From IMG/VR virus record IMGVR_UViG_3300045988_074874: DNA of 64,000 nucleotides, one strand, 5' to 3'. The notes under the pieces are model-generated. The model was not told where the DNA came from. It made no database searches and saw only the letters and a list, made by a program, of their open reading frames with translations. Source of the DNA: a virus. The position numbers and the translations under genes were made by a program. This document shows positions 46,330 to 47,274 of the stretch, piece by piece (positions within the stretch are counted from its first letter, which is position 1; the number at the start of each line of letters is the position of its first letter).

Positions 46330-47274
46330 ATGCTGTGTTATAAAGGGTTCGATAAAGATTTGAAATGTCAAGATTTCCAGTACGAAACCGGGAAAAAATA
46401 TTCAGAAGAAAGTGCTGAAATTTGCGAAAAAGGATTTCATGCGTGTGAATTTCCATTAGATGTATTTAGATATTATGCACCGTCAGATTCAAGATACTGT
46501 GAAGTAGATTTGGATGCAAACGATCAAAAATCAAATGATAGCAAGAGAGTTGGAAAAAGTATTTCGATCAAAGCTGAGATCGGGATTGCTGGAATCGTAA
46601 AAGCCGGTGTTGAATATATCAAGAACCAAGTTGATTGGAACAATGATAAAAAAACCAACACCGGAAACCGTTCAGCGGCAACCAACACCGGAGACTGTTC
46701 AGCGGCAACCAACACCGGAGACTGTTCAGCGGCAACCAACACCGGAAACCGTTCAGCGGCAACCAACACCGGAAACTGTTCAGCGGCAACCAACACCGGA
46801 TACCGTTCAGCGGCAACCAACACCGGATACCGTTCAGCGGCAACCAACACCGGAGACTGTTCAGCGGCAACCAACACCGGAAACTGTTCAGCGGCAACCA
46901 ACACCGGATACCGTTCAGCAGCAACCAACACCGGATACCGTTCAGCGGCAACCAACACCGGAAACCGTTCAGCGGCAACCAACACCGGATACTGTTCAGC
47001 GGCAACCAACACCGGAAACCGTTCAGCGGCAACCAACACCGGAAACCGTTCAGCGGCAACCGTAGAAGGAAAAGAGAGTGTTGCAATGGCAATTGGATAC
47101 GGTTCCAAAGCAAAAGGGTCTATTGGATGCTTTATTGTACTTGCTGAATGGAAGAAATTTGAAGACGAAACATACCATATTGTAGACGTGAAGTCCGCAA
47201 AAGTAGACGGGACAAAGATAAAACCAGATACATTTTATAAACTTGTAAACGGAGAATTTGTTGCAGAAGAGTAG
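46330..47274 (+). CDS. protein with 15 tandem 9-aa repeats TNTG(N/D/Y)(R/C)SAA between N- and C-terminal domains
   Basis: ATG at 46330; repeat array 46654-47058 encodes near-identical nonapeptides that differ only at two residues. Confidence 0.5.
   Translation: MLCYKGFDKDLKCQDFQYETGKKYSEESAEICEKGFHACEFPLDVFRYYAPSDSRYCEVDLDANDQKSNDSKRVGKSISIKAEIGIAGIVKAGVEYIKNQVDWNNDKKTNTGNRSAATNTGDCSAATNTGDCSAATNTGNRSAATNTGNCSAATNTGYRSAATNTGYRSAATNTGDCSAATNTGNCSAATNTGYRSAATNTGYRSAATNTGNRSAATNTGYCSAATNTGNRSAATNTGNRSAATVEGKESVAMAIGYGSKAKGSIGCFIVLAEWKKFEDETYHIVDVKSAKVDGTKIKPDTFYKLVNGEFVAEE
46654..47058 (+). repeat. 15 x 27-bp perfect tandem direct repeat (ACCAACACCGGA[A/G/T]AC[C/T]GTTCAGCGGCA), coding
   Basis: Only two variable positions per unit (A/G/T and C/T). 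Confidence 0.85.

Follow-up and report, generated by a model that had tools for sequence, protein, structure and literature searches.

Two variable codons in a 27-bp repeat array of an early phage gene of the DUF7666 family

Introduction

Known genes like the one considered here include those for gp53 of Salmonella phage ES18 and protein ALY08205 of Pseudomonas phi2. Both are DUF7666 / PHROG 4433 proteins with the same N-terminal domain, a central short-repeat array and a C-terminal domain, and both are encoded at an early location. In the leftward early operon of ES18, the gp53 gene comes right after the N-like antiterminator and before cIII, kil, erf and ssb, with a putative terminator behind it. 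The homologues of phi2 and of Acinetobacter fLi-Aba02 lie between repressor and integration genes, in an early-left accessory region, and those of a Vibrio phage and of Blautia phage Montmirail are found among replication and recombination genes. Records of family members carry conflicting annotations ("c-type lectin precursor", "pentapeptide", "putative ADP-ribosyltransferase", CRISPR spacers). We have analyzed a gene of this kind located at positions 46330-47274 of IMG/VR virus record IMGVR_UViG_3300045988_074874, a 64,000-nucleotide stretch of phage DNA that is referred to below, at its full length, as the window. The gene shows no essential difference from those of ES18 and phi2 in the above respects, and it is a new member of a catalogued, uncharacterized family whose repeat-variable diresidue behavior appears to be undescribed in the literature searched.

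In this gene and its relatives, the number and the order of repeat units turn over, and the variation among the units of an array is concentrated in two adjacent codons. On balance, though without strong conviction, we lean towards the view that the array forms the central beta-solenoid of a cytoplasmic early DUF7666 effector and bears a hypervariable target-binding ridge.

Results

The repeat array and its family

The gene and the parts of its array are as follows.

46330-47274, plus strand: gene for a 314-aa (amino acid) DUF7666 / PHROG 4433 protein, from Pfam, PHROG and homologue matches
46654-47058, plus strand: 15 units of 27 bp encoding TNTG-x1-x2-SAA in the frame of the gene, with x1 = N, D or Y and x2 = R or C; predicted beta-solenoid rungs
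46920, plus strand: lone synonymous G>A in unit 10 (unit position 24), seen in the window array
47059-47112, plus strand: two degenerate units, TVEGKESVA and MAIGYGSKA, seen in the sequence and predicted to prolong the solenoid, as strands carry on here in the model
47113-47271, plus strand: conserved C-terminal beta domain (...VDGxxIKxDTFYxLxNGEFVE), modelled with a predicted local distance difference test score (pLDDT) of 83-94, matching PHROG 27197 and present superfamily-wide in diverse representatives
46524-47108 and 46619-47113, minus strand, and 46607-47065, plus strand in an alternative frame: repeat-artefact open reading frames (ORFs), from the ORF list and the comparison of frames in related arrays

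Translation from the ATG at 46330, which lies behind a GAAAGGA ribosome-binding site, gives a product that agrees with 314-aa homologues, so that 46330-47274 is the correct gene. Tandem Repeats Finder detected a single array in the 45000-48500 region (46653-47061, period 27, 15.1 copies, 95% matches, 0 indels, score 713). Across the 15 units, position 13 is A in seven, T in five and G in three, yielding AAC, TAC and GAC codons (N, Y and D at x1), while position 16 is C in nine and T in six, yielding CGT and TGT (R and C at x2). An earlier sequence-only reading of the window had described fifteen perfect units variable at exactly two nucleotides, with six dipeptide states in no obvious order. 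The fifteen in-frame units and the two variable positions stand, but unit 10 carries the synonymous substitution listed above, and there are five states rather than six (NR in five units, YR in four, DC in three, NC in two and YC in one), DR being missing. The lack of order holds more widely: in 69 arrays, the order of units could not be distinguished from within-array shuffles at lags 1-7 (|z|<2), and the same test gave no significant signal of a stacking periodicity of unit types at lag 2 or 3.

A profile search, proposed by the sequence-only reading as a check, placed the protein in Pfam DUF7666 (PF24703; aa 1-91, 98.5 bits versus a cut-off of 27, or 101.5 bits with the N-terminal domain alone) and in PHROG 4433 (E = 6.9e-112), which has no assigned function. 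The protein has at least 8000 homologues; among those listed, lengths of 224 to 366 aa occur, with differences that are mostly multiples of 9 residues, and variation falls on the same two positions throughout. Other searches returned less. A megablast search of the locus against phage genomes and a search of E. coli complete genomes with an enterobacterial homologue as query, in near and distant modes, gave no match; the contig index searched holds no record of the exact window protein; and an NCBIfam scan gave just sub-threshold matches to repeat proteins. The sole match of the whole protein in a PDB sequence search, the nonapeptide CTR of S. pombe Spt5 (2e-18), was rejected as a coincidence of periodic low-complexity sequences.

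Several phage records contain homologues with unusual labels. For Vibrio phage 1.185.O (MG592551.1; L088 4357-4574), GenBank shows an in-frame homologous array as four "CRISPR spacers", a wrong label for a coding tandem repeat. In Salmonella phage vB_SemP_Emek (JQ806763.1, 27893-28291), the homologue is labelled "similar to ES18 gp53 with frameshift" and the match is confined to the N-terminal 41%; a pseudogene is one possible reason, a sequencing error within the repeat another. The DUF7666 proteins of the Rheinheimera Barba phages (L090 2471-3448, L091 471-1433, L092 471-1463) are built of a 5-residue unit, NTG[N/D/F/Y][R/Q/W/L/F], and are annotated "pentapeptide". These phages have a second, pentapeptide-repeat gene (PF00805) 700 bp downstream of the DUF7666 gene, and two published papers on them do not mention the DUF7666 gene.

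Variation within arrays is concentrated at two residues

Mean within-array nucleotide diversity (pi) was calculated for each unit position over 84 arrays of at least five units, with the following result.

Unit position 13: 0.60
Unit position 16: 0.39
Unit position 17: 0.37
Unit position 18: 0.20
All other unit positions: at most 0.12
Other synonymous third positions: 0.01-0.12

Between arrays, synonymous positions differ freely: positions 6 and 15 are each C in 48 arrays and T in 36, and Ser is encoded by TCN or AGY. The pattern indicates that the scaffold evolves in concert and that diversity is kept at two codons. The near-uniformity of synonymous third positions within arrays, together with their freedom between arrays, also bears out the proposal of the sequence-only reading that the array reflects recent expansion or ongoing gene conversion. 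The x1 codon, NAY, specified D in 432, Y in 311, N in 296 and H in 7 of ~1090 units, though His is one transition away from Tyr. At x2, the counts were R 329, Q 314, C 130, Y 126, W 117, K 30 and H 10. Deamination of CpG was considered as a source of the C/T and G/A variation and rejected, the synonymous CpG base at position 9 having a diversity of 0.044 versus 0.39 at position 16.

The same pattern is found well beyond close relatives. With the N-terminal domain as query, a full HMMER scan retrieved 3652 clusters (50% identity) at E up to 1e-3 from 1.84 billion cluster representatives, and nearly all full-length members share an architecture of DUF7666, short-period array and C-terminal "...VDGExIKxDTWYxLxxGExVE" domain. 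The scaffold consensus varies by lineage, with SAATNTG, SASTNTG, SAASATG, GNAAASG, AQIGSSG, SALTGG, GAATAG, AHAATTG, SSAATSG and ANQVGG among the examples. In 45 diverse cluster representatives (at least five units each), the unit period was 9 in 31 and 8 in 14, and in 37 the two most variable columns were adjacent and came right after the consensus Gly. This Gly-x1-x2 pattern was found on more than 20 repeat scaffolds; in the representatives examined, D, N or Y predominates at x1 (259 of 336; H, 3), and x2 is most often R, Y, W, G, S, C or Q. Judged by these representatives, variability at two residues is common to a very large family as a whole and does not set this phage apart.

One can ask whether the array is simply a neutral minisatellite, i.e., a tolerant spacer in which x1 and x2 are unconstrained surface residues and in which copy number and order drift by slippage. 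The statistically random order of units would suit such a spacer, as would copy numbers of 4 to 28 among relatives, which indicate that length is not tightly constrained, and D and N are generally known to be structurally favored at a Gly-adjacent turn. However, a mere lack of constraint on x1 and x2 would leave them about as diverse as synonymous sites, and the bases concerned are 3 to 50 times more diverse, which indicates that diversity is kept at the two residues. The restricted alphabet also argues against neutrality, with His rare at both positions despite being within the reach of a single transition, as does the maintenance of the Gly-x1-x2 behavior on so many scaffolds. We therefore regard neutral drift as rather unlikely, though it is the strongest of the alternatives.

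Arrays turn over among near-identical relatives

Arrays of relatives were compared using three contigs of the same lineage (L001-L003) and, for pairs of flanks, 78 loci. Contigs L002 and L003 match the window at 99.8-99.9% identity across ~3.4 kb to either side of the array and contain 7 and 5 units, respectively, versus 15 in the window. In this comparison, flanks that are 99.8-100% identical thus surround 5, 7 or 15 units. The L003 array equals window units 1-4 plus 15, and that of L002 can be derived via two internal deletions; one L002 unit, a YR, bears the synonymous G>A of window unit 10, which fits descent from the latter. The expectation of the sequence-only reading that array length and order would differ among relatives while the frame is maintained was borne out: arrays differed in 72 of the 73 pairs with at least 97% identical in-gene flanks, including pairs with 100% identical 2.5-kb flanks, and the frame was always kept. 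Within the 90% cluster of the window protein, lengths of 224, 278, 287, 296 and 314 aa occur; the terminal domains of these variants are identical or 1 residue apart, and their unit orders differ, with insertions as well as deletions. Altogether, at least 11 different arrays are attached to identical or near-identical terminal domains (at most 1 aa difference).

The sequence-only reading had also suggested looking for the behavior of a contingency locus. Repeat number does differ among near-identical genomes (mostly short-read assemblies), but no on/off switching is involved: since the 27-bp unit is a multiple of 3 and the frame is kept in 84 of 84 arrays, turnover does not lead to phase variation of the frameshift type. 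The locus is thus a contingency locus solely in the sense of in-frame variation of length and order.

A second alternative is that differences in copy number and order are mostly artefacts of short-read assembly, in which near-identical units are collapsed or mis-joined and the true arrays are stable. The L003 and L002 arrays, being obtainable from that of the window by internal deletion, are what such collapse would produce; several contigs end in arrays, and many database proteins are truncated. By our own reasoning, the stretches shared between units (~53-56 nt) are enough to confuse assemblies at k ~55, and a second, word-indexed homologue search with the N-terminal domain retrieved truncated fragments only. 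DUF7666 arrays do systematically break short-read assemblies. However, arrays of the same kind, with variable diresidues, are present in finished phage genomes such as that of ES18. Proteins of individually sequenced Barba isolates of one genus, two of them of the same species (326, 321 and 331 aa), differ by single units and substitutions, and the isolate-genome prophages L078 and L081 have 100% identical flanks and arrays of equal length with a different order of units. The insertions seen alongside deletions in the 90% cluster point in the same direction. We consider it improbable that the turnover is mostly an artefact of this kind.

The repeat is maintained as protein

All 84 related arrays keep the TNTG frame open, while each of the remaining five frames is open in just 22-75 of them. 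Since it is the only frame open in all arrays, the minus-strand and alternative-frame ORFs that overlap the gene are artefacts of the repeat, as the sequence-only reading had held for all three. It is very improbable that the repeat acts as DNA or RNA (as replication iterons, a CRISPR-like array or a ToxI-like antitoxin RNA) and that its coding is incidental. The array does lie near replication and recombination genes, and the Vibrio phage record labels a homologous array as CRISPR spacers, but changes between arrays fall almost solely on third codon positions or are synonymous Ser swaps, so that the peptide is kept; the TNTG frame alone is open throughout; and there is no Rfam match over the array. 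Furthermore, a CRISPR array has unique spacers between its repeats, whereas the 27-bp units here abut directly.

Predicted structure and the terminal domains

An AlphaFold2 model of the window protein was built from 50 homologues (mean pLDDT 77.6). The terminal domains are modelled with a pLDDT above 85 and the repeats with 52-71. In the model, each 9-residue unit forms one beta strand; by DSSP, Gly and x1 make a two-residue turn, and x2-S-A-A-T-N-T make the strand. The regular strand-turn periodicity and stacking that characterize a beta-solenoid are thus predicted for the array. A coil may be made up of two or three units, and we propose an alternation in which Ser, Ala and Asn would face inward and x2, Ala, Thr and Thr outward. 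The sequence-only reading had placed a hypervariable binding surface on a solenoid scaffold and had suggested structure prediction as a way to check it; the model, with its one strand per unit, lends support to the solenoid, and the binding surface is our inference.

The sequence-only reading covered the array and overlooked both the N-terminal domain, an ADP-ribosyltransferase (ART)-like candidate, and the reverse transcriptase encoded nearby. Modelled by itself, the N-terminal domain (aa 1-107) has a pLDDT of 95.5. In 36 diverse N-terminal domains, K5, C13, G35, H37, C39, Y48 and K72 are invariant, and C32, Y49, P42, D44 and P51 almost invariant. As candidate catalytic residues, the invariant H37 and Y48 may be considered together with Y49 and E40, whose conservation is high. 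A Foldseek search gave no support for an ART fold, a sequence-profile search of the PDB gave chance matches only, and a relaxed Pfam scan (E up to 10) retrieved DUF7666 alone and no ART family. The conserved residues could fit an H/Y-containing NAD+ pocket or a Cys/Cys/His/Cys zinc site (C13/C32/H37/C39) alike. A link of the N-terminal domain to ADP-ribosyltransferases should be read as a lead and not as a classification.

Early operon and genome context

Upstream of the repeat gene, the following features were found.

44478-44819, minus strand: helix-turn-helix (HTH) repressor-like gene (HTH_3 match)
44863-44890, plus strand: rightward early promoter-like site TTGACA-16-TATAAT (sigma-70 consensus 12/12), whose function is inferred from its position
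44978-45006, minus strand: leftward divergent promoter-like site TTGACA-17-TATAAT facing the repressor-like gene (sigma-70 consensus 12/12)
45051-45242, plus strand: cro-like HTH gene, the first gene of the operon (HTH_26 / HTH_3 matches below Pfam cut-offs; same position in L002 and L003)
45259-46041, plus strand: antirepressor with AntA and KilAC/ANT domains (Pfam ANT 3.6e-35, AntA 1.3e-21)
46051-46248, plus strand: 65-aa ORF between the antirepressor and the repeat gene (ORF list; no Pfam match; conserved in L001-L003)

The repeat gene is the fourth gene of a rightward early operon that follows a perfect consensus promoter, and the 44863-44890 site likely drives the cro-like gene, the antirepressor, the 65-aa ORF and the repeat gene. 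Its placement in the early region by the antirepressor, made earlier from the letters of the window, thus holds, with the 65-aa ORF intervening. The gene is followed by two small ORFs, SSB and an SMC-like ATPase. Reading the N-terminus of the product directly (MLCYKGFDKD...) revealed no evident signal peptide, so that the protein is presumably cytoplasmic.

Several other features of the region and of the window are recorded here as separate observations. The back-to-back perfect promoters between the repressor-like and cro-like genes presumably form a lysis/lysogeny switch. The SMC/AAA ATPase downstream of SSB (48369-50345) has a weak PADLOC match to LmuB (2.4e-7), which probably reflects a shared SMC-like ATPase fold and not a Lamassu system. 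The window as a whole (~40% G+C) is that of a tailed phage, with genes for a portal of the SPP1 type, a capsid protein of the E type, a CHAP/SH3 endolysin and methylases. Two DNA methyltransferase genes, at 58814-59647 and 61516-62955, are of the N6/N4 type (7e-27) and the C5-cytosine type (3e-63). The tail-gene region holds a GIY-YIG/NUMOD1 homing-endonuclease-like gene (28142-29089) and an HNH endonuclease gene (32579-33784); four tRNA genes (Gln-TTG, Met-CAT twice and Cys-ACA) are clustered at 3270-4601, near the left end of the window; and a protein of the LytTR/response-regulator type is also encoded among the scanned ORFs.

The nearby reverse transcriptase

A reverse transcriptase gene is located 7 kb downstream of the array.

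54197-55216: reverse transcriptase, 339 aa (RVT_1 5.7e-13; PADLOC generic reverse transcriptase model 7.6e-31; motifs RYNDDF and GIPLGNQVNQ)

That this enzyme diversifies the array as part of a diversity-generating retroelement (DGR) is barely credible and was rejected. In its favor are the RVT_1 domain, the proximity, a DGR-like local layout with a sub-threshold RT-2 RNA match and the adenine at variable base 13 of the commonest unit. However, even with up to 5 mismatches allowed, the unit does not recur in the window outside the array, so that a cognate template repeat is lacking; variation is not confined to adenines (those at unit positions 1, 4, 5, 7, 12, 14, 21 and 27 do not vary, and C/T at 16 and G/A at 17 do); and in ES18, phi2 and fLi-Aba02, which have the same kind of array, the stretches examined around the homologue contain no annotated reverse transcriptase.

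The reverse transcriptase is, by the above reasoning, unrelated to the array, and its surroundings have features of their own. Two paralogous ORFs precede the gene, at 52934-53539 (DUF6273, C-terminus ...VVSPSGYFGNYNCRNENGVRPVCI) and at 53536-54159 (with a C-terminus that looks frameshifted). A 77-bp imperfect repeat (53424-53500 versus 54026-54101, 78% identity) has the layout of a DGR variable/template pair, with mismatches that are not adenine-specific and lengths 1 nt apart. An RT-2 RNA (RF03077) match at 54101-54205 on the plus strand, which lies immediately upstream of the start of the reverse transcriptase gene and overlaps it, is below threshold in Rfam (26.3 bits versus a gathering score of 40, E = 0.0067). 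The 52934-55216 region may be a decayed or atypical DGR.

Discussion

The proposed working of the array

If the array is a solenoid with a target-binding ridge, each 9-residue unit would contribute one rung, with x2-S-A-A-T-N-T as the strand and Gly-x1 as the turn. Since the turn is made by Gly-x1 and the strand starts at x2, the two variable residues would sit side by side at a corner and stack along the rod as a ridge. Whole units may be duplicated, deleted and reshuffled when near-identical 27-bp units recombine unequally or slip, and this rapid turnover would homogenize the scaffold codons, while selection would actively keep x1 and x2 diverse within a restricted alphabet (D, N and Y at x1; R, Q, W, C, Y and K at x2). 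Asp, Asn, Tyr, Arg, Gln and Trp, of which the ridge is made up, are typical of recognition surfaces. The ridge would most likely bind a variable intracellular partner. The position of the gene among host-takeover genes suggests a counter-defense or host-modifying effector, which may be engaged in an arms race with the host, and the conserved N-terminal domain may supply an activity, possibly an ADP-ribosyltransferase-like one.

A number of points weigh against this view. The repeats are modelled with low confidence, and the packing of units into coils, with the assignment of inward and outward faces, is a proposal built on that model. The preference for D and N at x1 may partly reflect turn-forming propensity and not contact with a ligand, and C13, C32, H37 and C39 could form a zinc site instead of a catalytic pocket. 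Most of the copy-number comparisons use short-read assemblies, which are poor on such arrays: the IMG/VR contigs L018, L036, L068 and L076 end within the array, and ~185 database proteins (see P0121-P0240) are N-terminal fragments that stop in the repeats. A PADLOC scan of the repeat protein for defense proteins retrieved no family at E up to 1, the literature searched contains nothing on the DUF7666 family or its motif, and no annotation or experiment ties any member to a function.

Should the ridge indeed be a recognition surface, DUF7666 proteins, with their 3652 clusters, would be among the commonest hypervariable protein systems in phages. Unlike DGRs that act on virion receptor-binding proteins, the system would act intracellularly and early and would owe its diversity to the shuffling of units and not to reverse transcription. 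It would offer a tractable model of rapid retargeting of a phage effector, and the compact scaffold, with 9 residues per rung, may be of interest for engineering. A bolder idea, for which we would claim little probability, is that DUF7666 is a large unrecognized class of programmable phage effectors, in which an ART-like catalytic or adaptor head would be aimed by a Gly-x1-x2 code, one rung per contact, by analogy with the repeat-variable diresidues (RVDs) of TAL effectors (TALEs); the substrate could then be a protein of the host or of a rival phage or a single-stranded nucleic acid, and unit shuffling would retarget the effector very fast. In practical terms, public records at present mislabel DUF7666 arrays, calling them CRISPR spacers, lectins or pentapeptide proteins.

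Comparison with known systems

Targets of DGRs, such as Mtd of Bordetella phage, resemble the window protein in being phage proteins that have a stable scaffold and focus their hypervariability on a few residues; a DGR requires a template repeat and makes adenine-specific changes, however, and neither holds for the window array. From small phage and toxin ADP-ribosyltransferases (AcrIF11, Arr, Rhs TreX, BC2332-like), the N-terminal domain differs in having no sequence-level similarity to them and no Foldseek support, and its candidate Cys and His residues may bind zinc. The YadA-like / Hep_Hag heads of BpaC and UspA1 belong to another kind of protein, as the window protein lacks a signal peptide, stalk, membrane anchor and Pfam Hep_Hag match and is encoded in an early phage gene context. 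The RTX nonapeptide beta-roll (GGxGxDxUx) also differs: the TNTGxxSAA unit does not contain the GGxGxD calcium-binding consensus and has no Pfam match, the window protein is presumably cytoplasmic and not secreted, and its hypervariable positions have no RTX counterpart. Pentapeptide-type proteins (PF00805 / PF01469) are closer in being short-unit phage-encoded solenoids, the more so as the Barba homologues have a 5-residue NTG-x1-x2 unit, but the unit of the window protein is 9 residues (27 bp) long, does not follow the A(D/N)LXX consensus and has no Pfam pentapeptide match. TAL effectors share with the window protein near-identical tandem repeats in which two adjacent residues carry nearly all variation, and arrays that evolve by recombination of units. 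Their units, however, are helical hairpins of ~34 aa (RVD at 12/13) that wrap double-stranded DNA and read it by a known base code, whereas those of the window protein are modelled as beta rungs of 9 aa.

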